Below are positions 13,195 to 59,446 of a stretch of DNA of 64,000 nt, piece by piece. The stretch is taken from positions 45,848 to 109,847 of the forward strand of contig JAIDHX010000014.1 in NCBI GenBank assembly GCA_029053015.1, written 5' to 3'. The notes beneath the pieces are model-generated. The model saw only the letters and a program-made list of their open reading frames with translations, was not told the origin of the DNA and did not search any database. The stretch's first letter is position 1. Every line of letters begins with the position of its first letter. This stretch comes from Lachnospiraceae bacterium. Lineage in GTDB: Bacteria > Bacillota > Clostridia > Lachnospirales > Lachnospiraceae. The position numbers and the translations under genes were made by a program.

Positions 13195-13392
13195 AATTGC
13201 AAAACTTATATTTGCCAGTTTCGAATTGTACAGATTGTATACTTCATAAGCAGACCCTTGCTTACCGTCGGCACTTAGCTGCCGTATTTTGGCAGCTTAC
13301 GTACCGCTACGGTAAGCTCGGAGCGAAAGCGAGTCTGCGTTGAAGTATACAATCTGTACAATGACACTTGCTGCATAACGAGTCTTGCAATC
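13195..13392 (-). repeat. Long-hairpin repeat family, copy 1 (consensus orientation on the minus strand)
   Basis: Termini are AATTGCAAAACT...AGTCTTGCAATC. The outer stem TGTACAGATTGTATACTTCA pairs perfectly with TGAAGTATACAATCTGTACA. The core CTTACCGTAGCGGTAC...GTGCCGACGGTAAG matches the other copies. Confidence 0.9.
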
Positions 13393-13575
13393 ACTTGAAT
13401 TCATTATGTGTTGTGTCTCATAATATAGGAAAACAAGGAAAGCCACAAGCGAAGGTTTTTTGAAAGTGGTAAACCGGCAGTTGAAGAACATCATAAAATT
13501 GTGTAGGAGATAAACCATATCCTTTGTGCCGTATCTTTTGAATTGATTGATAAAATTATCGTTGATTTGTTTTGA

Positions 13576-13606
13576 CACCTGATACTGCAGGATGCAGTAT
13601 CAGGTG
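13576..13606. repeat. Perfect 14-bp inverted repeat with a 3-nt loop
   Basis: CACCTGATACTGCA-GGA-TGCAGTATCAGGTG, just downstream of the small minus-strand ORF 13623..13832. No T-tract on either strand. Confidence 0.7.
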
Positions 13607-13622
13607 AAGATTATTAATAGAT

Positions 13623-13832
13623 TTACAGATGATATTCCTTTAGCATTTCCTGATAAAAGTCTTTGTCTTCCTTAAGTCGGGGAATGCAATCCGTCTTTCC
13701 GTCGGCTATCAGGCGGGAAACCAGTTCCAGCATCTGCGCAGCTGCTTCTTCATAGCCGTTTTCATAGCCCGTTTTATAGCCTTGCTTATGCCCTTCGTCG
13801 TGTTCTCTTTTCAGCAACTCTCCTAACTGCAT
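13623..13832 (-). CDS. Small hypothetical protein
   Basis: 69-aa ORF with a G-Y/E-rich repeat (HKQGYKTGYENGYEEA). No family recognised. Confidence 0.4.
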   Translation of the reverse strand: MQLGELLKREHDEGHKQGYKTGYENGYEEAAAQMLELVSRLIADGKTDCIPRLKEDKDFYQEMLKEYHL

Positions 13833-13958
13833 ATACCCTTCCTCCAGTATTTTGCTCTGCTTCAGCGCTTTTATCCGTTCATGGATTCTTTCGATATTTT
13901 ATTTTGATATTATCGCTATTATAAACGAATAAAAACATTTTTGCAATCATTATTTTAA

Positions 13959-16466
13959 CTACTGAATACCCCAGCCGTCAAGGGAGAAGAAGCCATAACC
14001 GGTATCCAGATTGTGCAGCCCATAGCAGCCCAGCGTATCATTGGAATCCAGATATTCCCGTCGTTCAGGCTGCCAGCTTTGAAATTCTATTGCGCCGTAT
14101 AGCTCGGTGCCGGGGGCGTGTCCTTGTGCCTCGGGAGAATAGAGGATAAACTGCGCGTTTTCCTTTGGCATATTGCCGTTTGAATCCGAAAAACCGTATG
14201 GATTGCTTGCAATATAGCGTGTTCCGTCTAAAATCCACTCATCGTCGGTTTCATGTTTTGTATCCACAACCAGATTGTCCAAGGTCAGGCTCCAGCTCGT
14301 ATCGCTTATCTGCACAATATCTTTAAAACTGCCGTGAAATCGACAGATATACTCTGTGCCGTTGGGATAGCTATCGTTGTAAGAGCCCATCTCAGAATCG
14401 AGGTATACTCCTGAAAAACTACCGTCCGGATAGAGGTTAAGCATCGTCTGCCATCCGCCTGCGCCGCTGCAGAACATCATCTCCAATACGGAATCGGAAT
14501 CAATGGGAAGTCCGAGGGAAGAAATATAGTCGGCAATCTGTGCGGCGTAAGCCTCCCCTGCTTCCTGAAGCAATTGCAGATTTTCTGACAGGGATTTTGT
14601 GTTATCTCTGGTAAATTCGGGCTCCCAATCGTCAAAAAGAGTGCTGAGGTCATCATACAGTTTTCCGGTCCTCTCAAAGGTACCCAAAAGGGCATAATCC
14701 GTATTGAGCAGCTGCGTGCTTTGGGCAAGATAACCGTTTATTTCTTCCATAAAGGCGGCAATTTCTTCCGGATTGAATGCTTCGTGATAGGGAGCCTCGA
14801 AATTCACATCAAAAGAAACATGATTGTAGGCAATGGTTTCATACCCGTCTTTTAAGGTAAACAATTCATAGCTATAGCTGAACATTCCCTGATACAACGT
14901 TGGGTTATAGCGCAGCAGATAGCTCTCCCCATTTAAAGTACACAAAAACAGTGCGTTCCAGCCGGCATGGGCATAACCGCCTTCTGTATAAAAAATCCGC
15001 TCATCATTCTCATATATCTCCACAGCCTGTCCGTTGCCGTTGTCTATTTCTTTCTGCACCAGTGTTTCTTCTATGCCGTTCCGGTTTAAGTCCAGAATAA
15101 GCGGCAGGCTTGCAGCAGGGTCATCCGGATTTGTGTCAGAACCGGATGACGAACCGGAGTCCGGTGATTCTGTATTGTCCAAAGTGGAATCAGAACCGGA
15201 TGGTACGTCGGATGCAGGCAATGTGCAGAGCTGCGCCATAAGCGGCAGATTCATTTGTCCGGAAGCTGCCTGATAGAGCATATTCTGATATGCAATTTGG
15301 TGTTCGTCCAGCACGGATAAGCGTATTATCTCATTGTCGTCCTTGTCGTACCATGTGATTTGATAAAGCCATTTGTCAGGCTCTTTGACTTTCCCTGTTT
15401 TTTCGTAGTGATACTGCATAATATCTGCGGAAAGTGTCTCTAAGGGTGCCCCTGAGAGCCTTACGGGTTCTCCGCCATCCTGAGAGACGATGACTGCCAT
15501 ATCTGCATCTGCCAAATCAAATACCTTATCGGAGTAAGGATTGGTCAGAAAACAAATTATTACAACGACACAGGCGGCAAGGGCGGCTGTAACAATCCAG
15601 AAAGCCGGGCGTTTGTAGTTCAGCACGGATTTTACCCGCTTCTTTACATCCGTTTCCCCAAAGGCAAGCGGACAGGCAGTGATTCGGCGGCGGTCTGCGC
15701 TGCAGTCGAGTAAAGCCTGAGAATAGTCTGCTCTTGCTTCCCGGTCCAGCTCCCGTATCACCTTCTCATCACAGGCAAGCTCAATGTCCCTGCACAGCAG
15801 AATATAACTCAGCCACATCAGCGGATTAAACCAGTAGACTGCCAGCAGCAAAAAGCCAAAAGGCTTCCACCAATGGTCATGGCGACGCAAATGTGCCTGC
15901 TCATGTGCCAGCACGGATTCCAGTGATTCTTCCGGCAGGGAAAAGGGAATATATATCTTAGGCTTAATGATACCCAGAATAAAAGGGGAGGCAATGTTCT
16001 CGCTCTGATAAATATTGTCCCGAAAAAGAACGGCAGTATTGACTTTTTGCAGCAGCCGAAAATAGCTGATTGCGGCATATAAAAGCAGGAGGATAACACC
16101 CGCGCACCAGAAGGCAGCCAGTATGGGGAGTAATATCTGGAGCGGGTTTGCGCTTGCGCCGGGAGCCGGTGAAAAATTGTGCTCTATGATAGGGTTGAGC
16201 GCGTTGTTGACTGCCGGAATACCGCTTTCAATCGAAGGTTCTGCCTCCATCATAATTTCGGGGCGGATGGTTTCGGTACTGGGAATCAGACTCAAAGCGC
16301 TCTCTATGGAAAATGGACACACAAGGCGGATTCCCACAAGTCCCCAGAGAAGTACATTGACCCATTTGGGTGCTTTCTTTAAAACAGGGCGCAGCACAAG
16401 GACAGCCAGTACAAGCCAGCTTGCAGTAAGACTCATGTTGACAATCTTCAAAAATAAATTGGTCAT
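13959..16466 (-). CDS. BlaR1/MecR1-type M56 family peptidase with a long non-canonical C-terminal domain
   Basis: N-terminal transmembrane segments plus the zinc motif HEQAHLRRHDHWWK. It overlaps the upstream blaI-like gene by 4 nt. I saw no SxxK penicillin-binding motif in the ~540-aa C-terminal region. Confidence 0.85.
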   Translation of the reverse strand: MTNLFLKIVNMSLTASWLVLAVLVLRPVLKKAPKWVNVLLWGLVGIRLVCPFSIESALSLIPSTETIRPEIMMEAEPSIESGIPAVNNALNPIIEHNFSPAPGASANPLQILLPILAAFWCAGVILLLLYAAISYFRLLQKVNTAVLFRDNIYQSENIASPFILGIIKPKIYIPFSLPEESLESVLAHEQAHLRRHDHWWKPFGFLLLAVYWFNPLMWLSYILLCRDIELACDEKVIRELDREARADYSQALLDCSADRRRITACPLAFGETDVKKRVKSVLNYKRPAFWIVTAALAACVVVIICFLTNPYSDKVFDLADADMAVIVSQDGGEPVRLSGAPLETLSADIMQYHYEKTGKVKEPDKWLYQITWYDKDDNEIIRLSVLDEHQIAYQNMLYQAASGQMNLPLMAQLCTLPASDVPSGSDSTLDNTESPDSGSSSGSDTNPDDPAASLPLILDLNRNGIEETLVQKEIDNGNGQAVEIYENDERIFYTEGGYAHAGWNALFLCTLNGESYLLRYNPTLYQGMFSYSYELFTLKDGYETIAYNHVSFDVNFEAPYHEAFNPEEIAAFMEEINGYLAQSTQLLNTDYALLGTFERTGKLYDDLSTLFDDWEPEFTRDNTKSLSENLQLLQEAGEAYAAQIADYISSLGLPIDSDSVLEMMFCSGAGGWQTMLNLYPDGSFSGVYLDSEMGSYNDSYPNGTEYICRFHGSFKDIVQISDTSWSLTLDNLVVDTKHETDDEWILDGTRYIASNPYGFSDSNGNMPKENAQFILYSPEAQGHAPGTELYGAIEFQSWQPERREYLDSNDTLGCYGLHNLDTGYGFFSLDGWGIQ

Positions 16467-16834
16467 AGGGAACCTCCTTGCCGGAAGCGGTCGATTATCT
16501 GTTGGATTTCGTCAAGATCTTCCTCCGTCACCTTGCGGTGTTTGGTAAAGGCCGCAATAAAACTGGGAAGGGAGTCGTCAAATTTCTTCTCCACAAGTTC
16601 GTCAATCTCTGCTGCCTGCACCTCATCTTTGGAGACAAGTGATGTAACGATGGTATTTTCATTTTTTAAAACACCGCGCTCAGACAGACGCTTTATGACA
16701 GTGTAGGTAGTGGAATTTTTCCATCCCAGCTGCTCTTTGCACAAAGCAACCAGTTCACCGCTCTTAATAGGTTCATGTTCCCACAGAATCAGGCAAAAGC
16801 GGTATTCACTTTCAAAAATCTTTGGTGTGTCCAC
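16463..16834 (-). CDS. BlaI/MecI/CopY family transcriptional repressor
   Basis: 123-aa winged-helix protein (ILWEHEPIKSGELVALC...WKNSTTYTVIKRLSERGVL), translationally coupled to the M56 peptidase gene. Confidence 0.9.
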   Translation of the reverse strand: MDTPKIFESEYRFCLILWEHEPIKSGELVALCKEQLGWKNSTTYTVIKRLSERGVLKNENTIVTSLVSKDEVQAAEIDELVEKKFDDSLPSFIAAFTKHRKVTEEDLDEIQQIIDRFRQGGSL

Positions 16835-16850
16835 AATAGTTCCTCCTTCA

Positions 16851-16899
16851 CATGTAGTCTAACGCATTAGATTGTACATGTAGTCTAACACGTTAGATT
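16851..16899. promoter_or_regulatory. Two tandem operator-like repeats upstream of the blaI-like gene
   Basis: CATGTAGTCTAACGCATTAGATT and CATGTAGTCTAACACGTTAGATT are joined by TGTACATGTA. This is TACA/TGTA dyad content, as in BlaI/MecI operators. Confidence 0.55.
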
Positions 16900-17023
16900 A
16901 GATGTGTCAATAGGTTTTTCCAAAGTATATAAATATGCTAAAATGAAAAAAATATTTTTCTTTCATGTAGTTTTCTGCGGGAAAACCGTAGTTATATAGT
17001 AAAGACAAAAGGAGGCAGCGTGA

Positions 17024-17584
17024 TTGGCAGAAGATGAAAAAATCATAGAATTGTTTTTCGAGCGTTCGGAACAGGCGATACATGAATTGGACATAAAATA
17101 TGGAAAAGTCTGTCACAAACTTTCGTACAACATTGTAAACAGCAGGCAGGACGCGGAAGAGTGCGTCAATGACGCCTACTTAGGTGCATGGAACGCAATT
17201 CCACCTGCAAAGCCAAATCCCCTGCAGGCTTACATCTGTAAGATCGTTCGCAACATATCCTTGAGGATGTATTACCGAAACAAAGCGGCAAAGCGGAACA
17301 GTGTTTACGAGATTGCCATGCAGGAGCTTGAGGATTGTTTGTCTGCACCGAATACAGTTGAAGCGGAAATTGAAGCAGGAGAACTGGCGGGAATTATCGA
17401 CAACTTTTTGGAAACTCTGACCGTGGAAAACCGCGTTATTTTTATGCGCCGCTACGCTTACATGGATACTTATGCAGACATAGCCGCCCGTATCGGATTA
17501 TCTGAAAAGAATGTATCTGTCAGGCTTACCCGTATGCGCCGGAAGTTGAAACAGTACTTAATGGAAAGGGGAGTATGTGTATGA
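17024..17584 (+). CDS. ECF-type sigma-70 family RNA polymerase sigma factor
   Basis: Region 2 (ECVNDAYLGAWNAIPP) and region 4 (YADIAARIGLSEKNVSVRLTRMRRKL). TTG start 8 nt after AAGGAGG. Paralogous to 42582..43157. Confidence 0.85.
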   Translation: MAEDEKIIELFFERSEQAIHELDIKYGKVCHKLSYNIVNSRQDAEECVNDAYLGAWNAIPPAKPNPLQAYICKIVRNISLRMYYRNKAAKRNSVYEIAMQELEDCLSAPNTVEAEIEAGELAGIIDNFLETLTVENRVIFMRRYAYMDTYADIAARIGLSEKNVSVRLTRMRRKLKQYLMERGVCV

Positions 17585-18714
17585 ACAAAAAAATATTTTC
17601 AGAAGCAATGACCAAGATAAGCGATACGTATTATGAAGAAGCTGCCCAATATAAGCGCAGGCACAAGAATCCGGTTTGGGTAAAATGGGGAGCGGCAGCA
17701 GCCTGTCTGGCAATCGCGACTGCCTTTTGTATTATATTTCTCCCTTTTAGCGGAGGTATGGTGGTGTCGGCTTATGCGCACGGTACCGGTGAAGAAATCT
17801 CCGCAGCCGGCACAGTCATGAGCAGCGGCACTATCAGTGACGGAGGAGAACTGACAGGACATCCGCTGATGTTCTATCTTTCCGGCAAAGACATAGTTTC
17901 CGTTCGGTTTTCCTGCAAAAATCAGCAAATCTGCTTTATGGACTGGACCGAAAAGAGGGATGAATATGGAAATGCGAAAAACTTTACCGTTACCTATGGA
18001 GAGGACGAAAGCGAATACGATTACCTGACGATTGACTGGGTTCCCAATATGACTATCCGTGAATTGACCAACAATGCAGACAGCACGATTGCAACCCTGC
18101 CGGAAGAAATGCGCAGCGATATTATTGTGATGGAAATTACGTTTGAAAACGGAAAAACAGTAACGAAAGCAATTACCATTTCACTGTTGGATGATGGAAC
18201 GTTCTTTGCCGCTTTTGGCGATTACAAAATCAGCGAGGAAGATAATTTTGTAAAGAGTCCGGACAGCGAAGCAATTCCCCGTGACATTCTTTATGCGCAG
18301 GGCAGCGGGCAAATAGACAGCACGTCTGAAAACATGCAGGTTACAGAAGCGGAACAGACAAAATGGGGGATTACCTTATCCGTTGAAAATGTTACGCCTG
18401 CCGGACTGACCCTTGTGTGTACGCAATCCGGAGGGATACAAACGGGACAACTGCAGGCTGGCAGTTTCTATAAGCTTCAGGTATGGAGCAATGAAACCTG
18501 GCAGGAGGTCCCCTGCCTGATTGAGGATGTGGTATGGAAACAAGTAGCATATAACATTCCTTTGGAAGGCAGGGTAACATGGGAAATAGAGTGGGAGAGC
18601 TTATATGGAGAGCTGCCGGCAGGAACCTACAGAATTGTGAAGCCCATCAATGATTTTAGAGGACCCGGAGATTATGATACGGAGGAATGTTGGGTTGAGT
18701 TTGAAATAGAGTAG
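17575..18714 (+). CDS. Membrane-anchored protein, probable cognate anti-sigma factor
   Basis: It overlaps the sigma gene end. It has one transmembrane segment (WGAAAACLAIATAFCIIFLPF) and a large extracytoplasmic domain. Confidence 0.5.
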   Translation: MCMNKKIFSEAMTKISDTYYEEAAQYKRRHKNPVWVKWGAAAACLAIATAFCIIFLPFSGGMVVSAYAHGTGEEISAAGTVMSSGTISDGGELTGHPLMFYLSGKDIVSVRFSCKNQQICFMDWTEKRDEYGNAKNFTVTYGEDESEYDYLTIDWVPNMTIRELTNNADSTIATLPEEMRSDIIVMEITFENGKTVTKAITISLLDDGTFFAAFGDYKISEEDNFVKSPDSEAIPRDILYAQGSGQIDSTSENMQVTEAEQTKWGITLSVENVTPAGLTLVCTQSGGIQTGQLQAGSFYKLQVWSNETWQEVPCLIEDVVWKQVAYNIPLEGRVTWEIEWESLYGELPAGTYRIVKPINDFRGPGDYDTEECWVEFEIE

Positions 18715-18794
18715 TCAATAATGCGTGTTGGCTGAGGTTCCATAACCTACGGTGTCTTATAAGGGGCGGCATTTTACCTGCCGCCCCTGTACCA

Positions 18795-19758: not shown

Positions 19759-19957
19759 CGTCCCTTCGAAGTTCTGTGTTGTCGTAAGCTTTGTAAATTT
19801 ATTTGACGATATACATCGTACCACATAGTATATTAGGTGTCAACAGTAGATTGACAGGAATTTTTACAAGTGATATAATGCATATTACTAATAGTAACAT
19901 AAACGTCGGGAAGCAAATTAGGAAAATGACAATAAAAGAGTTTCTTTAAGGTTTGGT

Positions 19958-20152
19958 AATTGCGAAGTTTAGAAATGCTGCTGTTGTCATTGTGTACATG
20001 GTATATTCCAACGCAGACACGCTCTCGCTCCAAGCTTACCGTAGCGGTACTAAGCTCGAAAATACCTCGCTAAGTACCGACGGTAAGCAAGGGTCTGCTT
20101 ATGGAATATACCATGTGCACAATTCGAAAGCAGCAGATGTGAGTTTCGCAAC
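19958..20152 (+). repeat. Long-hairpin repeat family, copy 2
   Basis: Termini are AATTGCGAAGTT...GAGTTTCGCAAC. The outer stem is CATGGTATATTCCA / TGGAATATACCATG. The core is CTTACCGTAGCGGTAC...GTACCGACGGTAAG. Confidence 0.9.
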
Positions 20153-20175
20153 TATCCTATGAAAGGCAGCAGGTG

Positions 20176-20308
20176 TTTGCGAAACTTTCTTGCAGTTACA
20201 GGAAATGGGCAATATAGACAAAATGAGGGCGACTTGCCACTGCTTCGGAGGCGTTTTTGTCTATATTGAACATTTCCGTCACTTGCTGAAGATACTTCGC
20301 AATCCCTG
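20176..20308 (+). repeat. Second hairpin element with the same termini but an unrelated interior
   Basis: It begins TTTGCGAAACTTTCT and ends CTTCGCAATCCCTG. The interior carries a perfect 14-bp inverted repeat, CAATATAGACAAAA (20210-20223) / TTTTGTCTATATTG (20255-20268), plus GGAAATG / CATTTCC. Confidence 0.75.
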
Positions 20309-20336
20309 CCTTATCACTGCCGGAAAGGAGAACACA

Positions 20337-20909
20337 ATGGAATACATTATACTTGGTCTTCTGCTTTTGAGCGACAGAACTATTTACGGGCTGCGGGACA
20401 GAGTCGGCAAAGGACTGCATTTGATGTACAGCAGCAGTATGGGGAGTATTCAGGCGGCAGTCAGAAAGCTGCTGCAGCATGGATATATTCAGTACAAAGA
20501 GCTGACGGAGCAGGGAAAGCATAAGAAACTGTACTCCATCACCGAAAGCGGAAAAGCGCATTTCAAGGAGTGGGTAAACCGGCCGATGTCACAGGAAAAT
20601 GTAAAAAACCCGGAACTGGCAAAAATTTATTTTATGGGTTTTGCGGATAAGGAAACACGGAGGCGGAATATCGAACAGTATCTGGAGGACTTAAGAGCCC
20701 GCCATCACGCGCTTGCCGCCGTCTGCGAGGAGGGAGAGCGGCTTGCCGTTTCAGAAAAGGGCGGAAAAGAAACAATTCCCGAAGAAGGGCGTGAAATTTT
20801 TGCATACCAGCTTGCGACGGCATATTACGGAAGAGATTTCCTGCAATTCCATATCGCATGGTATGAGAAACTGCTTTTGGAAATGCAGAGAAAGGATGGA
20901 AGGATATGA
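20337..20909 (+). CDS. PadR family transcriptional regulator (long form with C-terminal domain)
   Basis: MEYIILGLLLLSDRTIYGLRDRV...GSIQAAVRKLLQHGYI. RBS GGAAAGGAG before the ATG at 20337. Confidence 0.85.
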   Translation: MEYIILGLLLLSDRTIYGLRDRVGKGLHLMYSSSMGSIQAAVRKLLQHGYIQYKELTEQGKHKKLYSITESGKAHFKEWVNRPMSQENVKNPELAKIYFMGFADKETRRRNIEQYLEDLRARHHALAAVCEEGERLAVSEKGGKETIPEEGREIFAYQLATAYYGRDFLQFHIAWYEKLLLEMQRKDGRI

Positions 20910-26306: not shown

Positions 26307-26393
26307 CTTTAAGTCAGCTCATATTTTTTTACAAAAAAGCTTGCGGCACATGTGTTTTAGGATATTTGGTAAACTATAGATAATTGTGTAGGC

Positions 26394-26588
26394 AATTGCG
26401 AAACTCATATTTGCCGATTTCGAATTGTACACATGGTATATTCCATAAGCAGACCCTTGCTTGCCGTCGGTACTTAGCGAGGTATTTTCGAGCTTAGTAC
26501 CGCTACGGTAAGCTTGGAGCGAGAGCGTGTCTGCGTTGAAATATACCATGCGTACAATGACAACGGTATCGTTTCTGAGTTTCGCAAA
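26394..26588 (-). repeat. Long-hairpin repeat family, copy 3 (minus orientation)
   Basis: The reverse complement is near-identical to copy 2. Termini are AATTGCGAAACTCA...TGAGTTTCGCAAA. It is flanked by CTATAGATAAT at 26374-26384 and 26592-26602. Confidence 0.9.
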
Positions 26589-26725
26589 CGCCTATAGATA
26601 ATCATGGGACGAAAGGAGAGATTTATTTTATGACAACACCCGTTTATTTTGCATAGCGAGGCTATTGCAAATAAGAAAACAGAAAAGAAGTAATAGCCTG
26701 CGCATCGGACTTTTATGAACAGGAG

Positions 26726-27304
26726 ATGCAGATGAGCTATTTAAGGAAAACAGAATATGAAATGATACCGCAGGAATCCTTTTTGGTGATTCATAATTGT
26801 TCCGGCTGCGGCGGAAAATCCCGTTTTAAAAACACAAAAAAATTCCGCGTCAATGCCAATGGCAGTAAGCTGGATGTCTGGCTGATTTACCAGTGTGAAA
26901 AATGCCGGCATACCCTCAATCTTGCCATTTATGAGAGGCAGAAGGCTTCCCTGGTGCCGAAAAACGAGTATAAGGGATTTTTAAGCAATGAGGAGCAGCT
27001 TGCGGAAATGTATGGTAAAAATATGCAGTTATTCAGGAAAAACAAAGCCGAGATTGACTTTGAAGCATTGCAGTATCAGTTTGTGAAGCGGCAGGATATG
27101 ACAAAAGAACATGACGGCAGACCGCAGACTGTGATTACCATACATAATCCATATGGGCTGAAAATCCGTCCGGAAAAACAAATCGCCGAGGTTTTAGGGC
27201 TGTCCCGAAGTCAAATAAGAAAGCAGATGGAACAGGGAGAAATCCGGCTGGAAAAGCTTTCGCCTTATATTATTGCTGCCTGTGTAAATGATTTGCAGGA
27301 ATGA
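26726..27304 (+). CDS. DUF1062 domain protein (Cys4 zinc-ribbon-like)
   Basis: HNCSGCGG...YQCEKCRH is the characteristic DUF1062 N-terminus. Confidence 0.75.
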   Translation: MQMSYLRKTEYEMIPQESFLVIHNCSGCGGKSRFKNTKKFRVNANGSKLDVWLIYQCEKCRHTLNLAIYERQKASLVPKNEYKGFLSNEEQLAEMYGKNMQLFRKNKAEIDFEALQYQFVKRQDMTKEHDGRPQTVITIHNPYGLKIRPEKQIAEVLGLSRSQIRKQMEQGEIRLEKLSPYIIAACVNDLQE

Positions 27305-38502: not shown

Positions 38503-39414
38503 ATGACGAATGAAGAGCTTGTGCGGCTTATCAAAGCCGGTGTTGACAGGGAAAACAACATGCTGCAGCTTTACATACAGGTTAAAGGCTTTATAGGCGC
38601 AATTGCCATGCGTTACCGTGGAAGGGCGGAAATGGAGGATTTGGAGCAGGAGGGCTTCCTTGCCTTGTATGACGCCGTTGAAGGGTATGATTCGGGGCGC
38701 GGGTGTATGTTTCTCACCTATGCCGGCTACTGGATAAAGCGCCGTCTGTCCCAGTATGCAGGCAGAAGCGGCAATGTTGCCGGCTTGTCGGTCGAGGCGG
38801 TAAAAAGTCTGTCCGTATATAAGAACATGGTTAATACATTCCTCCTGTGCATAGGCAGGGAACCCACAAGGCAGGAAACAGCGGAGTGTATGAACGTCCC
38901 GATAAGTCAGGTTGAGGAACTGGAAATGCTTGCCCACATGGAAAAGGCGGAAAGCCTTGAATTGCCTGCTGCCGGCAGCAGGCATGATACAGCGCTGTGT
39001 GACCTGTTGCCGTCTGCTGAGAATCTGGAAGCGGATGTGTTGGAGCAACTGCAGTGTGAACAGCTTTCCCATATCCTGTGGGCACAGGTGAACAGGCTGC
39101 CGGCTGAGCAGGGGTGTGTGATTCGCGCAAAGTATTTAGACGGGCGCACTTACAGGGAAATCAGCGCCGGTATGGGGATAGAAGCGGGAAAGGTAAGGAA
39201 CATTGAACATAATGCACTGTGGAAGCTGCGCCTTTCGCGTGATTCCTGCCTACTCCGTTCTTTTCTTCCGGAGTATGAGGATATCTACAGCAGAGGGATA
39301 AAAGGGAGCGGCTCCCGTCACTTTGATACCACATGGACCAGCTCGACGGAGCGGGTGGCATTGGAGGATATGGCAAGAAAAAGTGTCACTAGTAGTGTCA
39401 CTAGTAGAATTTAA
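38503..39414 (+). CDS. Sigma-70 family RNA polymerase sigma factor
   Basis: Region 2 (DLEQEGFLALYDAVEGYD...FLTYAGYWIKRRL) and region 4 (YREISAGMGIEAGKVRNIEHNALWKLR). The last codons coincide with the right-arm repeats. Confidence 0.8.
   Translation: MTNEELVRLIKAGVDRENNMLQLYIQVKGFIGAIAMRYRGRAEMEDLEQEGFLALYDAVEGYDSGRGCMFLTYAGYWIKRRLSQYAGRSGNVAGLSVEAVKSLSVYKNMVNTFLLCIGREPTRQETAECMNVPISQVEELEMLAHMEKAESLELPAAGSRHDTALCDLLPSAENLEADVLEQLQCEQLSHILWAQVNRLPAEQGCVIRAKYLDGRTYREISAGMGIEAGKVRNIEHNALWKLRLSRDSCLLRSFLPEYEDIYSRGIKGSGSRHFDTTWTSSTERVALEDMARKSVTSSVTSRI
39383..39409 (+). promoter_or_regulatory. Candidate integrase arm-type binding sites (right arm)
   Basis: GTCACTAGTAG at 39385 and 39397, the same motif and orientation as at 29092-29118. 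Confidence 0.5.
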
Positions 39415-39499
39415 TGCAATATTATGGCAAAAATAGTGAAGTAGAGAAAATGTTGTAAAGGCTGGATTTTTCAAAAAATAAATGACGGGAAAACAGGAT

Positions 39500-39533
39500 T
39501 TTATGAAGAGAATATTAATCTTTTTTTAAGATG
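39500..39533 (+). repeat. Right attachment-site core (34 bp)
   Basis: Identical to 29014..29047. Confidence 0.85.
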
Positions 39534-43960: not shown

Positions 43961-43978
43961 CTTATGGAGGACAAGAAA

Positions 43979-44518
43979 ATGAAAAAAATGAGTACCCTTT
44001 ATATAGTCGCAATCCTTATTGTGACGCTTGCGGCTTGCGCTGACAATACCGAGCAGAGTCAAAATGCCCCTGTCATCTCTGTTTCTGTACAAGATGAAAG
44101 TGTGAGGGAACCTAAGATTGAGGATGAGCCGGAACAGAGCTACGATAATCCCAGCAATCCCGTTCTTGAACAGGATGCCAGTGTGAGTGAGCTTAAGGCT
44201 GAGGATGGGACGGAGCAGGGAAGCGATAATCTCAATAGTCCCGTTTCTGAACAGGGAGAAAGTGTGAGCGAGCCTGAGATTGAAGGCGAGCCGGAGCAGA
44301 GCTATGATAATCCCGGCAATCCCGTTTCTGAACAGGATGAAAGTGTGAGTGAGCCTAAGACTGAGGGTGGGCCGGAGCAGAGCGATGATAATCTCAGCAA
44401 TCCCGTTTCTGAACAGGATGAAAGTGTAGGTAAGCCTGTTATGGAGGGGTGCTATGATGACCCCAATAATCCTGTTGCAAATCAGAATTATAGTGTAGGT
44501 GAACCAAATCATGAGTAA
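43979..44518 (+). CDS. Lipoprotein with acidic 27-aa tandem repeats
   Basis: The signal peptide has a lipobox (LIVTLAAC). It is followed by about 4.8 repeats of the type SVSEPKxEGxPEQSxDNxxNPVSEQDE. Confidence 0.7.
   Translation: MKKMSTLYIVAILIVTLAACADNTEQSQNAPVISVSVQDESVREPKIEDEPEQSYDNPSNPVLEQDASVSELKAEDGTEQGSDNLNSPVSEQGESVSEPEIEGEPEQSYDNPGNPVSEQDESVSEPKTEGGPEQSDDNLSNPVSEQDESVGKPVMEGCYDDPNNPVANQNYSVGEPNHE
44093..44485 (+). repeat. 81-bp in-frame tandem repeats (4 full units plus 1 partial)
   Basis: Units start at 44093, 44174, 44255, 44336 and 44417. Confidence 0.85.
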
Positions 44519-46096: not shown

Positions 46097-46325
46097 TGTG
46101 TAGGGGCTGCGAAACTCAGAAACGATACCGTTGTCATTGTACACATAGTATATTCCAACGCAGACTCGCTTTCGCTCCGAGCTTACCGTAGCGGTACGTA
46201 AGCTGCCAAAATACGGCAGCAAGTCATGCCCGGCATGACTTTGGTACCGACGGTAAGCAAAGGTCTGCTTATGGAATATCCTATGTGCACAATTCGAAAC
46301 CGGCAAATAGGAGTTTCACAACTAC
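46097..46325 (+). repeat. Long-hairpin repeat family, copy 4 (with an extra apical hairpin)
   Basis: TGTGTAGGGGCTGCGAAACTCAG...GGAGTTTCACAACTAC. The core carries GCTGCCAAAATACGGCAGC plus the extra hairpin AAGTCATGC-CCG-GCATGACTT. Confidence 0.9.
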
Positions 46326-46342
46326 TTAGTCATATATAAGCA

Positions 46343-46389
46343 TTTGCGAAACTTTCTGTCCCTTGCAGAAACCATTTCGCAATCACCTG
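46343..46389 (+). repeat. Short element carrying only the family termini
   Basis: TTTGCGAAACTTTCTGTCCCTTGCAGAAACCATTTCGCAATCACCTG. Its ends match those of element 20176..20308. Confidence 0.7.
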
Positions 46390-46418: not shown

Positions 46419-47267
46419 ATGACAATAAAGGATGTTGAGGAGCGGACAGGGCTGGCGCGTTCTAATATCCGGTTTTATGAGAAGGAAGGCCTGATAGAAC
46501 CGTCGCGGAATGACAAAAACGGATATAGGGATTATTCTGAAAAGGACGTTGAAACGATTAAAAAAATTGCTTATTTGCGTACCCTGGAAATTTCCATTGA
46601 AGATATCCACTGCATTATGACGGATAAAGTGTCGCTGGCAGAAGTGATAGAAAAGCAGGCTGCAATAATAAAAGAGCAGATTGACGGCTTAAATAAAGCA
46701 AAAGCCATGTGCGAGAGAATGGTGGAGGCCGGAAACCTTAGCTTCGGCGAGTTACAGGTTGAAAAATATGTGGCAGACCTGCCGCATTATTGGAACGATC
46801 ATAAAGCCGTTTTCAAACTGGATTCGGTCGGTTTCCTGCATATATGGGGCAGCCTCATTACATGGATAATTATCACATCTTTATGCCTGATGGCCGGGTT
46901 ATTGTCGTATACAAAATTACCGGATAAAATGCCTGTTCAGTGGAATCATGGAATAGCAGTTTCTTTTATGGACAAAAAAATTATCTTTGCATATCCGCTG
47001 GTCTGTATCATCATCCGTATTTTGTTACGGCCGGTTATCTATGTAAAATTATGCATGCGCCATCCCTACGGAGAGCCCATCACGGAATACCTGACCAACT
47101 ATATGTGCTTTATTGCACTGTCAGTAGAGCTGTTTTCCATACTATTTGTGTTCGGGCTGGTAAAAAGCGTAGTATCCGTTTTGCTTGTAGATACAGTTGT
47201 ACTCATCGGCGTATTGCTAGCTGCCATATCAACCGTCCAACCGTATAAACATAATAACCGCGCATAA
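46419..47267 (+). CDS. MerR family regulator fused to a C-terminal membrane domain
   Basis: MTIKDVEERTGLARSNIRFYEKEGLIEPSRNDKNGYRDYSEKDV, followed by about 4 transmembrane segments. RBS GGAAAGGAG. Confidence 0.85.
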   Translation: MTIKDVEERTGLARSNIRFYEKEGLIEPSRNDKNGYRDYSEKDVETIKKIAYLRTLEISIEDIHCIMTDKVSLAEVIEKQAAIIKEQIDGLNKAKAMCERMVEAGNLSFGELQVEKYVADLPHYWNDHKAVFKLDSVGFLHIWGSLITWIIITSLCLMAGLLSYTKLPDKMPVQWNHGIAVSFMDKKIIFAYPLVCIIIRILLRPVIYVKLCMRHPYGEPITEYLTNYMCFIALSVELFSILFVFGLVKSVVSVLLVDTVVLIGVLLAAISTVQPYKHNNRA

Positions 47268-53803: not shown

Positions 53804-55027
53804 ATGAAAATGGTAGAGGGCGGCGTATGTGCCGCAAAGGGATTTCAGGCTGCCGGCGCGGAAGCCGGTGTCAAATATAAGGACAGGAAGGATATGGCGC
53901 TTGTTTACAGCGAAGTGCCCTGTGTATGTGCAGGCACTTTTACCACCAATGTGGTAAAGGCGGCCCCGGTGCTTTGGGACAGGGAGCTTGTGGAGAACGC
54001 TCCTTTTGTACAGGCAATTGTAGTCAATTCCGGTATTGCCAATGCCTGCACGGGAAAGGAAGGACTTGACTGCTGTAAGGCGGAAGCAAAGGAGGCGGCG
54101 GACAGGCTGCAGATTCCGGAAAACAGTGTATTGCTTGGTTCCACCGGTGTTATCGGTATGCAGATGCCCGTAGACAGGCTGAAAACGGGCATTGCAGAGC
54201 TTGCGGGCAAAAAAGAGCGCTCCGTAAAAGCGGCAGACGACGCGGCAAGGGCGATTATGACGACGGATACCGTGGATAAGCAGATTGCGGTCAGCTTTGA
54301 AGTGGGCGGCAAAACCGTGACCATGGGCGGTATGTGCAAGGGCAGCGGCATGATTCACCCCAATATGTGCACCATGCTTTCCTTTGTGACCTGTGATGCG
54401 GCAATTTCAAAAGAGCTTCTGACAAAGGCGGTAAAAGAAAGTGTGGCCGATACCTTTAATATGATTTCCGTGGACGGAGACACTTCTACCAACGACACCT
54501 TCCTGTTTTTGGCAAACGGTATGGCGGGCAATCCGGAAATCGCGGAGGAAGGCGAGGCATACGAAACCTTTAAGGAGGCTCTGCTCTTTCTCAATACCAC
54601 GCTGGCGAAGAAACTTGTGGGAGACGGCGAAGGCGCGACAGCGCTGGTGGAAGTGCAGGTTGTGGGAGCGGAAAGCAAGGAAGCTGCAAAGCAGCTTGCC
54701 AAATCCGTTATTTGCTCCAGCTTGACGAAAGCGGCAATTTTCGGACATGACGCCAACTGGGGACGTATTCTTTGCGCTCTCGGCTATTCAGGTGCAGCCT
54801 TTGACCCCGAAAAAGTAGAACTGTTTTTCCAGAGCAAATCAGGACGTATCCAAATCTACAAAAATGGCTCTGCTGCGGACTACAGCGAGGAAGAGGCAAC
54901 GAAAATCTTATCCGACGAGGAAGTTACCATTTTGGCGGACATGCACATGGGCGATGCCACGGCAACTGCATGGGGCTGCGATTTAAGCTACGAATATGTC
55001 AAAATCAACGCGGACTATCGCTCGTAG
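53804..55027 (+). CDS. argJ: Bifunctional ornithine acetyltransferase / N-acetylglutamate synthase
   Basis: GFQAAG..AG.K, KGSGMIHPNMCTMLSF (autoprocessing T) and the C-terminal YVKINADYRS are canonical. Confidence 0.95.
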   Translation: MKMVEGGVCAAKGFQAAGAEAGVKYKDRKDMALVYSEVPCVCAGTFTTNVVKAAPVLWDRELVENAPFVQAIVVNSGIANACTGKEGLDCCKAEAKEAADRLQIPENSVLLGSTGVIGMQMPVDRLKTGIAELAGKKERSVKAADDAARAIMTTDTVDKQIAVSFEVGGKTVTMGGMCKGSGMIHPNMCTMLSFVTCDAAISKELLTKAVKESVADTFNMISVDGDTSTNDTFLFLANGMAGNPEIAEEGEAYETFKEALLFLNTTLAKKLVGDGEGATALVEVQVVGAESKEAAKQLAKSVICSSLTKAAIFGHDANWGRILCALGYSGAAFDPEKVELFFQSKSGRIQIYKNGSAADYSEEEATKILSDEEVTILADMHMGDATATAWGCDLSYEYVKINADYRS

Positions 55028-55113
55028 AATGGAGAATCATGTCGAATCAATACAAATGCATTGCAACGGCAATGCATTTGTGCTATATTGGTTTCCGTAG
55101 GAGGTGTATATTT

Positions 55114-55407
55114 ATGGCAAGTACAATTCAAATAAGAGTGGATGATGAATTAAAAATGAAATCTGATAACCTGTTTAGAGATTTGGGAACTGATACAACA
55201 ACAGCAATCAGAATTTTTTTAACACAGGCGATAGCTGCGAATGGATTTCCATTTGAAATAAAAAGAGCACAGGCGAATCCGTACGAGGCAATGCGGGAAG
55301 AGGAAATATTAAACAAACTGGAAAAATCTCGCGAGCATGCAAAGCAGGGGAAATATAGGGATGCCGGGGACGTTATTTCTGATATGAGGGGGAAGTATGG
55401 ATTATAA
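55114..55407 (+). CDS. relB: RelB/DinJ family type II antitoxin
   Basis: MASTIQIRVDDELKMKSDNLFRDLGTDTTTAIRIFLTQAI. RBS TAGGAGGTG. Confidence 0.85.
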   Translation: MASTIQIRVDDELKMKSDNLFRDLGTDTTTAIRIFLTQAIAANGFPFEIKRAQANPYEAMREEEILNKLEKSREHAKQGKYRDAGDVISDMRGKYGL

Positions 55408-55711
55408 GATAGTTCTCACTTCAGATGCAGAAGAGGATTTGGACAGATTTATCAAATATCTGCTTTTGGAGAAGAAAAGTGAACAGGCTGCCAGAAATGT
55501 ATTGGATGACTTTGAGGCTGCAAAAGAGAGCTTATCTCATGCTGCAGGAAGTTTAAAAATTTGTGATAATCCGAAATTGAGAGCATTGGGCTATAGAAGA
55601 ATTAACTTTCTGTCTCATAGATATTTTATGCTGTATCGAATTGTAGATAATATTGTCTTCATTGATAATATATTTCATGAATTACAGGATTATGAAAGCA
55701 GGATGTATTAG
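55397..55711 (+). CDS. relE: RelE/ParE family type II toxin
   Basis: 104 aa. It overlaps the antitoxin gene by 11 nt. It has DLDRFIKYL... and a C-terminal FHELQDY. Confidence 0.75.
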   Translation: MDYKIVLTSDAEEDLDRFIKYLLLEKKSEQAARNVLDDFEAAKESLSHAAGSLKICDNPKLRALGYRRINFLSHRYFMLYRIVDNIVFIDNIFHELQDYESRMY

Positions 55712-55752
55712 TGCAGACTAATTCAATAAATTGGATTTGATGGGGATATATT

Positions 55753-56295
55753 ATGGCAAAAAATGATAATGCACATTCTATTCGCTTGGTTGATAGTTTA
55801 AATAGAAATGCGGGACATGATACCGCGAAAGAATTTGAGGAAAAGTATCCATTGTCCCAAAGTGCAAATATTGAAAAGAAATATGAATGGGCAAAGGATA
55901 CATGCGGTTATCTTGAAGATCATTTTGATGCTGACACCATTATCAGAGTTAGAAAAGATTGTAGATGTAATGATGGAAAATCAATTGCCAACAAGCTTCT
56001 GAAATATTTGAATAAGGCGGATAGCATAGAAGAATTTGTAAACACATTTAACCAGAACGAAACATTTGCTTTTATGGAATATATGTCTGATAACAGAATA
56101 TTATTTTGCTACCCTGAATGTTATTGTGCTTGTGTAAAAAGAGTTCCAAGGGAGTTATCAAAAACGTGGTGTTATTGCACTTTAGGCAATGCAGAAGGCA
56201 TTTTTAGCAAAGTGTTCAGGAAAGACGTAAAGGTCACATTGCATGAAAGCATAAAAACCGGTGCAGATAAGTGTGTGATTGAAGTAGAATGGTAG
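55753..56295 (+). CDS. Cys-rich hypothetical protein (DUF6144-like)
   Basis: 180 aa with CRCNDG, CYPECYCACV and WCYCTLG cysteine clusters. Confidence 0.55.
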   Translation: MAKNDNAHSIRLVDSLNRNAGHDTAKEFEEKYPLSQSANIEKKYEWAKDTCGYLEDHFDADTIIRVRKDCRCNDGKSIANKLLKYLNKADSIEEFVNTFNQNETFAFMEYMSDNRILFCYPECYCACVKRVPRELSKTWCYCTLGNAEGIFSKVFRKDVKVTLHESIKTGADKCVIEVEW

Positions 56296-56365
56296 TTTAA
56301 CGGAACAAAAAATGCCATTTTGTAGTGCGCCGGCTTGTTAAAGTTCAAAGGAGAACAATTGATTG

Positions 56366-57049
56366 ATGGAAAAGGAAAGGATTCCGGATTGGGAAGACAG
56401 CACGGATGAGTACTTTATGATAGACTCCTGCCGGATTCCAAGAAAGGGACTGGATACCGTATATCTGGCATATAAACTCCGAGGAGGAGGTCCTTATGCC
56501 ATTGCAGCGCATATGCATTACTATGAACTGGAGTTTTGTTATGAGGATGGCACCCATTTTTCAGTGGGGCTGTTGCGTTCGGAAGAGAAGGATTTTGAGC
56601 AGTTGATTCGTAGATATGACGATAGCGTCAAAATCTATAGACACCGGAAAATGAAAGAAAATGCCCCATTGCTCTGTCCTTTTAAAAAGCTTAGGGCGGA
56701 GGTACCTTTTGTGAGAAAAGAAACCATGGAGGAATTGACCACATTGTGCAGCGGCAATCCTTTTTGGAGACTGGACGCAAAAAGCAGGAACAAGTATAAT
56801 GGCAATAAGGAAGTGGAATTGACTTTGTGCGGTACTGCACTGACATGGCTGCTTTGGCTGGCGTGGCTTTGTTTGTCAGTTTATTTCTTTTTCTTTGTCC
56901 TTATCCATTTGAAAACAGCCGAACTGCTTATTCCATTAGGATGCGGATTATGCTATTATCTGTTTTTTATCAGAAGCGCCCGGAGGATAACAGAAAAAGC
57001 GAAAGCTATTTTCTACCAGGCCATTTTTAGCGGAAAAATAGAATCATGA
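56366..57049 (+). CDS. Hypothetical protein with C-terminal transmembrane segments
   Basis: ORF with two C-terminal hydrophobic helices. No family recognised. Confidence 0.45.
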   Translation: MEKERIPDWEDSTDEYFMIDSCRIPRKGLDTVYLAYKLRGGGPYAIAAHMHYYELEFCYEDGTHFSVGLLRSEEKDFEQLIRRYDDSVKIYRHRKMKENAPLLCPFKKLRAEVPFVRKETMEELTTLCSGNPFWRLDAKSRNKYNGNKEVELTLCGTALTWLLWLAWLCLSVYFFFFVLIHLKTAELLIPLGCGLCYYLFFIRSARRITEKAKAIFYQAIFSGKIES

Positions 57050-57609
57050 GGGAAGATATTTTAGATTGTTTACAAAAAGAAGTACATCGTAGATGCCAAA
57101 AAGAAACGAACAAATTTGGAATGGGCTGCTACTATCACATTGCTGCAGTAGTGAAAAATGCAGGAATCCTCTCGGAAAAATATGGAGCGGACAGGGAAAT
57201 TGTTATGATTGCTGCCTGGCTGCATGATATTGCTTCCGTTACGGATTATGATTTATATGAGCAGCATCATATACATGGGGCAGAGATGGCATATGGTATT
57301 TTAAAAGAATACAATTATGACAATAAGAAAATTGCGCTGGTACAGGAATGTATAAAAAACCACAGAGGGAGTATAAATCTGGAAAAGAATAGCATTGAAG
57401 AATTGTGTGTGGCAGATGCGGATGCAATTTCTCATTTTGATAGTGTGCCCAGCTTATTGTATTTGGCGTATGTTACAAAGGGAATGGATATCGAGGAGGG
57501 GAAGGAATTTGTGAAAGCCAAATTGATAAGAAGTTTCAAAAAACTATCGGCAGACAGCAAAAAATATTATCAAAGCAAATTTGAAAAAGTGATGGAGGTT
57601 TTGAATTAA
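57046..57609 (+). CDS. HD domain phosphohydrolase
   Basis: HxxxV...LHDIAS...H is the HD motif. It overlaps the upstream stop by 4 nt. Confidence 0.8.
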   Translation: MREDILDCLQKEVHRRCQKETNKFGMGCYYHIAAVVKNAGILSEKYGADREIVMIAAWLHDIASVTDYDLYEQHHIHGAEMAYGILKEYNYDNKKIALVQECIKNHRGSINLEKNSIEELCVADADAISHFDSVPSLLYLAYVTKGMDIEEGKEFVKAKLIRSFKKLSADSKKYYQSKFEKVMEVLN

Positions 57610-57651
57610 TTTCTCTGAAAGAGAGATTCGGTTTTGCGGAGGAGAAACGAG

Positions 57652-58287
57652 ATGAAATATTGGGATACTGTCTGGCACAAAGAGGATATTGAGAATTATA
57701 AACATTATATAAAGGGATATGAAAATGTAAAAAATATAATGGTTCGTGAGTTTCAAAAGTATAACTGTCATGTTGTATGTGATGCGGCTTGTGGTTTTGG
57801 AGCGAACAGCTTAATTTTACAGTCTAATGGATTTGATGTCTGGGGATTTGATATTTCTGAAAGCGCAGTGTGGATTACAAAAGAATTATTGACTCCTTAT
57901 GGAATTCGAAAGGAGCAGTTTAAAACAGCGTCCATATTAAACACGGAATATCCTGATAATTTCTTTGATGCAGTTGCTGTAAGAGCCGCACTGGACCATT
58001 TGTGTGTGAATGAGTTTAACAGGGCGCTGGACGAATTAAAAAGAATAACGAAAGAAAATGGGTTATTGTATGCTTCTTTTGATTCACTTGAACCCGATGA
58101 CACAGAACTTGAACATAGTGTTTTGGAAGATGGAAGTTTTTTATATACTGATGAAAGCAGAGATGGATTATTGTTCCACTATTATTCCGATGAAGATATT
58201 CAAAAAGTGTTTCGAGGTTATGAAATTCTTGGTATGGAAACAGATGGGCGCGGTAATCGGCATTTGGTTGTGAAATCAAATTCGTAA
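57652..58287 (+). CDS. Class I SAM-dependent methyltransferase
   Basis: Motif [24 protein letters not shown] before the ATG at 57652. Confidence 0.8.
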
Positions 58288-58319
58288 ATAAAGAAAAGCA
58301 TTACAAGGAGGAAATCAAA

Positions 58320-59219
58320 ATGCAGGATAAAAACATGGACACCGTATTGCAGAAGGCAGAGGTTCTCATTGAGGCGCTGCCCTACATACAGCGATTCAAC
58401 AGGAAAATTATTGTGGTAAAGTACGGCGGAAGCGCCATGAGCAACGAAGACTTAAAAAGGAACGTCATAAAGGACGTGACCCTCTTAAAGCTGGTAGGCT
58501 TCAAGCCAATCATCGTGCACGGCGGCGGCAAGGACATCAGCCGCTGGGTTGGCAAGGTGGGCAAAGAGGCGCAGTTTGTAAACGGACTGCGTGTGACCGA
58601 TGAGGAAACCATGGAAATTGCGGAGATGGTGCTTGGCAGAGTCAACAAGCATCTGGTGTCCATGGTGCAGGAGCTGGGCGTAAAGGCAGTCGGCATCAGC
58701 GGCAAGGACGGCGGGCTTTTGCAGGTGGAAAAGAAATATGCGGACGGGCAGGACATTGGCTATGTGGGTGAAGTGAAAAAAGTGGAGCCGAAGGTGCTCT
58801 ATGATCTTCTGGAAAAAGATTTCCTTCCCATTGTGGCGCCCATCGGACTGGACGAAAATTTCCAGACCTACAACATTAACGCGGACGACGCGGCCTGTGC
58901 CATAGCCAAGGCGGTGGGGGCGGAAAAACTGGCGTTCTTAACGGACATTGAAGGGCTGTACAAGGATATCAACGACAAGTCCAGCTTTATATCGAGACTG
59001 ACGGCGACGCAGGCGGACGAGCTGATAGCGGGCGGCTTTATCGGCGGCGGCATGCTGCCCAAGCTGGGCAACTGTACCTCGGCAATCAAGAACGGGGTCA
59101 ATCGGGTGCATATACTGGACGGCAGAATCCCGCACTGCCTGCTGCTTGAAATTTTCACAAACAAAGGTATCGGCACTGCCATTATTGCAGACGAGGACAG
59201 CCACATGCTGATGGATTGA
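58320..59219 (+). CDS. argB: Acetylglutamate kinase
   Basis: [15 protein letters not shown] and NINADDAA motifs. RBS AGGAGG. Confidence 0.95.
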
Positions 59220-59446
59220 GAGGCAATTGCGGAACGCGGTGATTATGCCGTTGTCATTGTGTATCTTGTACATTCCAACGCAGACGCGCTTTCGCTTCGA
59301 GCCAGCCGTAGCGGTACGTAAGCTGCCAAAATACGGCGCAAGTCATGCGGGCATGACTTTGGTGCCGACGGCTGGTAAGGGTCTGCTTATGGAATATACA
59401 AGATACACAATTCGGATTTGGCAAAAAGGAGTTTTGCAATTACCTG
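59217..59446 (+). repeat. Long-hairpin repeat family, copy 5 (argB-argD intergenic)
   Basis: TGAGAGGCAATTGCGG...GGAGTTTTGCAATTACCTG. The outer stem is ATTGTGTATCTTGTA / TACAAGATACACAAT. The core stem is changed to CCAGCC...GGCTGG. It is flanked by TGATGGAT at 59209-59216 and 59447-59454. Confidence 0.9.

Follow-up and report, generated by a model that had tools for sequence, protein, structure and literature searches.

A high-copy family of long-hairpin repeats in Lachnospiraceae with the features of miniature inverted-repeat transposable elements and the termini of an IS1182-like insertion sequence

What kind of element is the hairpin repeat of roughly 200 bp that occurs five times between genes in a 64,000-nucleotide stretch of the Lachnospiraceae bacterium assembly GCA_029053015.1 (contig JAIDHX010000014.1, positions 45,848 to 109,847 of the forward strand; this whole stretch is hereafter the window)? 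The first-pass annotation of the window had reported an unclassified family of long imperfect hairpins with conserved ends and with arms that change together. The repeat is indeed a genuine high-copy, non-coding, mobile-looking family with conserved termini and covarying arms. The label ‘unclassified’ did not survive, as the family has terminal inverted repeats (TIRs), an 11-bp target-site duplication (TSD) and a parent insertion sequence (IS) that shares its termini. The repeats, which are bounded by TAGG...CCTA and are called type A here, are thus very probably miniature inverted-repeat transposable elements (MITEs) mobilised in trans by the transposase of that parent IS.

The TIRs of type A are about 18 bp long (TAGGYRWTTGCGAAACTC ... 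GAGTTTCGCAAWYRCCTA) and are conserved in 56 independent copies; helix 1 of the alignment, which is formed by the termini, is 93% paired. In clean copies, a direct repeat of exactly 11 bp abuts TAGG on one side and CCTA on the other. This duplication is perfect (11/11) in 8 of 52 copies and reaches at least 9/11 in 21 of them; among 2000 mismatched flank pairs, 42 (2.1%) reached 9/11 or more and none reached 11. Direct repeats of variable length, some long enough to include the left terminus, were also considered; these proved to consist of the 11-bp TSD and a neighbouring sister element (type B or mini, described below) that bears a left terminus of its own.

The first-pass annotation had proposed a search for a longer, transposase-encoding element with the same termini, and one was found: an IS of 1.77 kb. 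Using the terminal repeats only, a scan of viral and prophage contigs returned 104 stretches, most of them probably chance matches, and in six of these the left terminus was followed by the right terminus 1.74–1.80 kb later. The TIRs of this parent IS (TAGGTAATTGCGAAACTC ... GCGTTTCGCAAACGCCTA) are the same termini as those of type A, and its insertions are likewise flanked by 11-bp duplications (ATGCTATTTCC, 11/11, at locus L288; GGTATTAACTA at L139). Like type A, the parent ISs adjoin a ribosome-binding site (RBS) on its 5' side, the L288 element lying 32 nt from the start codon of the neighbouring gene. Each encodes a single protein of 490–516 aa with DUF772, DDE_Tnp_1 and DDE_Tnp_1_6 matches, of which DUF772 passes the Pfam cut-off and the other two fall below it. 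The best NCBIfam model is IS1182 (NF033551), at 72.3 bits against a cut-off of 270. More than 4000 homologues of the transposase were detected. Those that carry a name are called ‘transposase’ (Blautia massiliensis, Blautia sp. and Lachnospiraceae bacterium), and relatives on plasmids of Butyrivibrio, Roseburia and Clostridium are either unannotated or labelled ‘hypothetical protein’. Many homologues lie on contigs of about 1.7–2 kb, as is typical of repeated ISs. The IS and the MITEs have only their termini in common.

Within the window, all five copies exist at the positions first reported and align end to end with a mean column identity of 78%; their exact ends needed correction, the true TAGG...CCTA limits lying a few bases further out (Table 1). 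A window-wide repeat search showed that they make up its main dispersed family. Their architecture also agrees with the initial description, comprising the termini, the arms, the GCAGAC/GTCTGC pair, an asymmetric bulge (CGCTYTCGCTCC), the core stem and two apical variants, and the additional AAGTCATGC..GCATGACTT hairpin is present in copies 4 and 5. Pfam scans of 20 open reading frames (ORFs), comprising those that border the five copies plus ten further large ones, confirmed that no transposase, reverse transcriptase or integrase adjoins any copy. Among these 20 ORFs there was neither a transposase nor a reverse transcriptase domain, the latter sought as a test for retrons, diversity-generating retroelements and group II retroelements. 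The sole integrase gene of the window, together with an IstB-like gene (29–36 kb), belongs to a separate island and not to the hairpin family. A conserved small ORF was ruled out, as start codons and frames differ between copies: the ATG-initiated frame of copy 2 is missing from copies 1, 4 and 5, and the copies, which range from 183 to 273 bp, differ in length by amounts that are not multiples of 3.

The family extends well beyond the window. Scanning species-representative genomes with an internal 20-mer identified at least 103 loci that carry type A, almost all of them in Lachnospiraceae assemblies (Acetatifactor, Blautia, Dorea and unnamed metagenome-assembled genomes, MAGs). An nhmmer profile built from the five window copies gave at least 112 non-overlapping matches in the at least 103 loci plus the window, 57 of them full length. 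The forward strand always outscored the reverse by a wide margin, which gives the palindromic element a defined polarity. Apart from an adjacent type-B element in some cases, the flanks of 56 full copies are mutually dissimilar; the copies therefore represent independent insertions. Some type-A contigs occur in MAGs labelled Gastranaerophilales, Muribaculum or Bacteroides (L003, L012, L014, L019, L031, L035, L039, L041, L042, L053, L055 and L074), which come from the same sample series (NALB_7961). These labels probably reflect mis-binned contigs rather than spread across phyla. No published description of MITEs of Lachnospiraceae or of the parent IS was found in the literature, a search that lay outside ISfinder; the family thus appears to be undescribed, although it belongs to a well-known kind of element.

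Relative to genes, as predicted by a simple approach based on ORFs, the position of the insertions is strikingly regular. In 33 of 56 copies, one end lies 11–48 nt (mostly 23–37) upstream of a start codon, this being the right end in 21 and the left end in 12. In co-oriented cases, the other end is often 0–14 nt past the upstream stop codon. In most of the remaining copies, a type-B or mini element fills the RBS-proximal position. The duplicated target sequences are rich in A, which occupies the first position in 23 of 33 sites, and an AAAGGAG-type RBS follows 3–8 nt after them. The window conforms to this pattern, since all five copies, or their tandem partners, end 28–36 nt before an RBS-preceded ATG. 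Between the right end of copy 1 and the ATG (13159) of an HTH_3-methyltransferase gene downstream there are 30 nt, and copy 3 has its left end 36 nt from an ATG at 26631. Copy 5 begins immediately past the argB stop codon, and 30 nt separate its other end from the argD ATG. Beside the left end of copy 3 (26605–26660), an AAAGGAG RBS precedes this ATG at 26631, which opens an ORF of 8 codons (MTTPVYFA); a DUF1062 gene starts downstream at 26726. The 8-codon ORF might encode a leader peptide or mark a gene start that has been disrupted.

The junction between argB and argD allowed a comparison with relatives, which share at most 87% protein identity and so do not represent strain-level empty sites. 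No type-A element was found near argB among 80 relatives, and the argB-argD spacer measured 1–35 nt in 13 of the 26 junctions that were read. Both observations fit insertion of copy 5 into a short operon spacer. In another species, whose argB is 84% identical, a core-deleted relative with the same termini (L229:2897-2995) lies exactly at the argB stop codon, which falls inside the left terminus of that element. The argB-argD junction has therefore received at least two independent insertions.

Sister elements with the same termini accompany two of the window copies. The type-B element follows copy 2 after 11 nt and ends 28 nt upstream of the ATG of the PadR-family gene at 20338, and the mini element follows copy 4 after 8 nt and ends 29 nt upstream of the ATG of a MerR-family gene at 46419. 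Across the family, 11 of 56 loci have type B directly behind type A, and the arrangement is invariably A(+)-spacer-B(+), with spacers of 9–16 nt that differ between loci. Comparison of the flanks suggests that L037 and L007 arose by successive insertions into a single 11-bp target, and that in L084 and L006 an A+B pair moved as a unit.

Table 1. Positions of type-A copies, sister elements, target-site duplications and parent insertion sequences. Unprefixed positions refer to the window; L numbers are loci elsewhere.
Feature	Position	Strand	Description
Type-A copy 1	13190-13397	-	Degenerate termini CAAGTGATTGCAAGAC ... GTTTTGCAATTGTCAC
Type-A copy 2	19953-20158	+	Upstream of type-B element and PadR-family gene
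Type-A copy 3	26389-26594	-	91% identical to copy 2
Type-A copy 4	46100-46328	+	Extra apical hairpin AAGTCATGCCCGGCATGACTT
Type-A copy 5	59220-59446	+	Between argB-like and argD-like genes
Type-B hairpin MITE	20170-20309	+	140 bp; termini CAGGTGTTTGCGAAAC ... CTTCGCAATCCCTGC; other body; DNA fold z -6.4
Mini element	46337-46389	+	53 bp; little beyond two terminal repeats TAAGCATTTGCGAAAC ... TTTCGCAATCACCTG
Copy 3 TSD, right-hand	26378-26388	-	CACAATTATCT
Copy 3 TSD, partner	26596-26606		CATGATTATCT; 9/11 identical
Copy 5 TSD, left	59209-59219		TGATGGATTGA; includes argB stop codon
Copy 5 TSD, partner	59447-59457		TGATGGATAAA; 9/11 identical
Perfect TSD	L093		GAAGTATAGAG
Perfect TSD	L008		AATATTTCATT
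Perfect TSD	L102		AAAAGTGTTGT
TSD of further clean copy	L036		AAAAATAAGTA
TSD of further clean copy	L042		AAAGCACACGC
Parent IS	L139:440-2207, L164, L204, L120, L131, L170, L288:2859-4629		1745-1796 bp

Each window copy folds into one long hairpin, as initially described, with a minimum free energy of -86 to -102 kcal/mol compared with -43 to -68 kcal/mol for dinucleotide shuffles (z from -7.7 to -14.7), and the reverse strand folds about equally well. Covariation was assessed by pair counting in 53 distinct copies recovered by nhmmer from Lachnospiraceae genomes, using an RNAalifold consensus of 41 pairs. Standard pairs occupied 94.2% of cells, against 84.8% when partners were shuffled, and pairing dropped to 30–43% when the structure was slid by 1–3 columns. 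Changes on both sides were present in 23 of the 41 pairs, and doubly changed cells numbered 212 versus 64.5 expected, a count reached by 0 of 500 shuffles. The compensatory changes noticed between the arms of a few copies are therefore real and general, and the arms are unusually well kept for a MITE family.

The first-pass annotation had taken these paired changes to mean that the fold is maintained, as RNA or as single-stranded DNA. That complementarity is kept holds true; the evidence lends no support to its being kept as RNA, given that G:U pairs are strand-symmetric and about 30% of operon-embedded copies are antisense. Copies co-oriented with both neighbouring genes had 121 G:U pairs on each strand, and opposed copies had 44 on the top strand versus 51 on the bottom one. 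A:C mismatches were also strand-symmetric, whatever the orientation relative to transcription. Stem integrity was unrelated to TSD decay (rho 0.004), by a crude stem measure that includes the conserved bulge. The symmetry of the wobble pairs and the independence of stem mismatches from TSD decay point to a DNA-level or strand-independent cause of the kept complementarity, which could be selection for mobility or DNA-level homogenisation of both arms. The conserved core comprises a CGCTYTCGCT bulge, a CCGTAGCGGTAC/GTACCGACGG stem carrying an AG bulge, and the apical module. This invariant asymmetric core is also present in the distant copy L165; as L165 was retrieved by its termini alone, core conservation is not a mere product of the search pattern.

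Several observations weigh against the view that type A consists of selfish MITEs mobilised by the parent IS. We infer mobilisation from the sequences, transposition itself being unobserved, and no strain-level polymorphism between filled and empty sites was found; an exact-protein look-up of the window argD for such empty sites returned no record, the window proteins being absent from the contig index. No copy of the IS was detected in the window, and a tblastn search with the transposase matched none of the at least 103 type-A genome loci (pieces of about 8 kb), so that co-residence of IS and type A is demonstrated at the family or genus level only. The family assignment of the parent IS is loose, far under the IS1182 cut-off, and on its sequence the element is best called ‘IS1182-like’. 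At L160, an element of about 190 bp with the same termini is weakly structured, which shows that a long hairpin would not be required for mobilisation. Three further features are not explained by a selfish element alone. Stem decay that tracks TSD decay was sought and no correlation emerged; the invariant asymmetric core is not by itself accounted for; and the same is true of an orientation bias, in which 28 copies lie between same-strand genes and 12 between opposite-strand genes (binomial p = 0.017), with 7 others in divergent and 5 in convergent regions.

These features invite the question of whether the repeat is instead a cis-acting structured RNA, acting in 5' untranslated regions (UTRs) or within operons as an RNase III site or as a stability or translation module, that has spread genome-wide. 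Such an RNA would be RBS-proximal, as the copies are at 18–48 nt upstream of start codons, and the co-orientation of 28 of the 40 operon-embedded copies with their genes, the strong covariation, the invariant core shared with L165 and a stem integrity that is independent of TSD decay would all agree with it. Copy 2 also lies between a gene and a perfect promoter-like site of the sigma-70 type (TTGACA and TATAAT separated by 17 nt, and a TG upstream; 19851–19879), about 75 nt upstream of the copy, and is probably transcribed as a leader. The PadR leader starting from this site would hold both hairpin elements, with a 5' UTR of roughly 450 nt. However, the other 12 of the 40 copies are antisense to their genes, G:U and A:C are strand-symmetric in either orientation, both strands fold equally well, and the genes downstream have no common function. 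Position and spread are, moreover, explained by the TIRs, the TSD and the parent IS, which is likewise RBS-proximal. As the first-pass annotation had suspected, the element is absent from Rfam: the whole window gave no match at the gathering score, and at E values up to 10 the 13–27 kb region gave only a spurious generic hairpin match to the plant microRNA MIR2950. A scan for tRNA and tmRNA found none. We consider a structured RNA of this kind quite unlikely. Because G:U pairs are equal on both strands and the genes downstream of the window copies are unrelated (HTH-methyltransferase, PadR, MerR and argD), a riboswitch-like RNA is also unlikely, and a riboswitch or leader as the identity of the family was ruled out on these grounds together with the roughly 30% of antisense copies. 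A promoter or terminator carried by the element was rejected as well, since no consensus site recurs inside the copies; the only signal that a consensus scan detected within them was a weak hybrid -35 at the right terminus of copy 3, and the hairpin is not followed by a U-tract. A related reading, in which type A is a mobile regulatory cassette whose core and stem form an RNA or DNA module recognised by a protein or an RNase, fits the co-orientation bias, the stem integrity that is independent of TSD decay and the core kept in L165, and we regard it as rather unlikely. If true, a transposon would have carried this module to a precise position about 30 nt before start codons, so that unrelated genes and operon junctions by the dozen would share one form of control, either post-transcriptional or based on DNA structure.

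The symmetry of the wobble pairs, the lack of a rise in stem mismatches with TSD decay and the compensated differences seen even between copies 2 and 3, which are 91% identical, are also what neutral upkeep of the arms at the DNA level would produce, by gene conversion within the palindrome or by mismatch correction in extruded hairpins. The fold would then be functionless; this is a version of the MITE reading that bears on the covariation only, and it is in keeping with the L160 MITE, which has the same termini and lacks the long hairpin, so that the fold seems unneeded for mobility. On the other hand, the asymmetric bulges (the 13–16-nt CGCTYTCGCTCCRAG and the AG bulge in CCGTAGCGGTAC) have been retained, and indiscriminate homogenisation of the arms would tend to erase such features; their conservation therefore argues against it. 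TSD loss is, in addition, a poor clock, as recombination between copies destroys TSDs too. We hold neutral upkeep to be possible, if doubtful. A single-stranded DNA element, either similar to repetitive extragenic palindromes (REPs) and bacterial interspersed mosaic elements (BIMEs) or of the IS200/IS605 type, with its hairpin recognised by an HUH/Y1 transposase, would also show a hairpin conserved by compensatory change, equal folding of both strands and a high density of intergenic copies. Yet Y1 transposases make no TSD, whereas type A has a clear one of 11 bp, its termini are identical to those of an IS with a DDE transposase, neither a Y1 nor a RAYT gene was detected in the vicinity of the copies, and type A is 5–10 times longer than REPs. 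Given the 11-bp duplication and the DDE partner, REP/RAYT and IS200/IS605-type elements are excluded, and we consider this explanation extremely improbable.

Under the preferred reading, that of MITEs mobilised in trans, the DDE transposase of the parent IS would bind the termini of about 18 bp (TAGGYRWTTGCGAAAC) of the gene-less type-A element, 190–230 bp in length, and would integrate it with cuts staggered by 11 bp, leaving an 11-bp direct repeat on each side. Integration strongly favours an A- or purine-rich stretch immediately 5' of a Shine-Dalgarno sequence, which places one end of the element about 25–35 nt upstream of a start codon, often in a short operon spacer. Repeated hits on the same spot may then generate the tandem arrangements with type-B or mini elements. 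The self-complementary body may be kept for propagation or persistence, either by juxtaposing the termini of a very short element or by being tolerated in transcripts; alternatively, its arms may be homogenised at the DNA level. Type A would not, in this mechanism, act as a strand-specific regulatory RNA.

Bacterial MITEs with hairpin bodies include Correia/NEMIS in Neisseria, ERIC/IRU in enterobacteria, RUP in Streptococcus pneumoniae and bcr1 in Bacillus cereus. By analogy, Correia/NEMIS, ERIC, RUP and bcr1 appear to be the closest counterparts of type A, as all are short (100–230 bp), non-coding, high-copy elements with TIRs and a long imperfect hairpin. They insert beside or between genes, where they are likely co-transcribed, and form subfamilies with internal indels. 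Correia and RUP duplicate TA and bcr1 duplicates TTTAT, whereas type A has an 11-bp TSD. It also differs in its IS1182-like DDE parent, in an end located about 30 nt upstream of the start codon and in the compensatory arm changes observed over 53 copies, and has no sequence similarity to those families. Longer duplications are known from the IS4-family element IS231 and its MIC231 derivatives in Bacillus, which generate 10–13-bp duplications and in which cassettes bounded by the IS termini are mobilised in trans. Common to both systems are a long TSD (10–12 bp), short trans-mobilised derivatives with IS termini and occurrence in Firmicutes. The parent transposase (DUF772/DDE_Tnp_1_6), however, differs in its domains from that of IS4 elements, the termini lack an initial CAT, and the target is A-rich and RBS-proximal, in contrast to the GGG(N)5CCC of IS231 and MIC231. 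With REPs and BIMEs, type A shares its abundance as intergenic palindromes, often between the genes of an operon; REPs are 20–40 nt long, lack a TSD and are Y1-linked, whereas type A has an 11-bp TSD, 18-bp TIRs and a DDE parent.

The parent IS itself resembles the IS1182 family in encoding one DDE transposase of about 500 aa (DUF772 plus DDE_Tnp_1_6) whose best NCBIfam model is IS1182, and in a length of about 1.77 kb, which is within the size range of the family. It departs from that family in its score (72 versus 270 bits) and in being labelled by annotation pipelines only as ‘transposase’ or ‘hypothetical protein’. For IS1272, a staphylococcal member of the IS1182 family, targeting of inverted-repeat structures, tandem duplications of the left end and insertion with no TSD have been reported (PMC5678879). 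The tandem left-end duplications described there recall the additional left termini and the sister elements that directly follow the right end here, whereas the regular 11-bp TSD of the parent IS contrasts with the lack of one in that account of IS1272 (PMC5678879).

Other repeats in the window belong to different features. Two short repeat regions (29004–29118 and 39376–39533), about 10.4 kb apart, contain segments of 44 and 34 nt that are 91% identical and occur in swapped order. The segment between them begins with a tyrosine-integrase gene (29147–30322, minus strand) and contains an IstB/DnaC-like ATPase gene (35086–36117) and internally repeated upstream sequences at 31899, 32173 and 36037; probably, it represents a mobile element that has integrated or the remains of a prophage, separate from the hairpin family. 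Two adjacent segments of about 150 bp (30636–30784 and 30940–31087; 304 bp apart, 76–83% identical), situated a short way downstream of the integrase gene, resemble a small gene or regulatory unit that has been duplicated in tandem. Elsewhere, an ORF of 184 aa (43964–44518) contains at 44081–44427 an in-frame tandem repeat of 81 bp (27 codons, 4.3 copies, 77% matches), implying a putative repetitive acidic or proline-rich protein segment.

The identification of type A as very likely MITEs accounts for a conspicuous repeat of gut Lachnospiraceae and ties it to a very abundant and poorly annotated transposase. Insertion is near nucleotide-regular between the end of one gene and the RBS of the next. 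Such insertions can split operon transcripts with a hairpin of about 90 bp, can alter the C-termini of proteins, as the position of the argB stop codon within the duplicated target illustrates here, and can build tandem arrays in the 5' UTRs of regulators such as PadR and MerR. For annotation and assembly, the family matters because spurious ORFs are called across its copies and because the repeats break contigs. A DDE-type MITE with symmetrically covarying arms also offers a clean natural test case for distinguishing selection for mobility from homogenisation by DNA repair. The family is likewise relevant to studies of strain-to-strain variation in gene expression.

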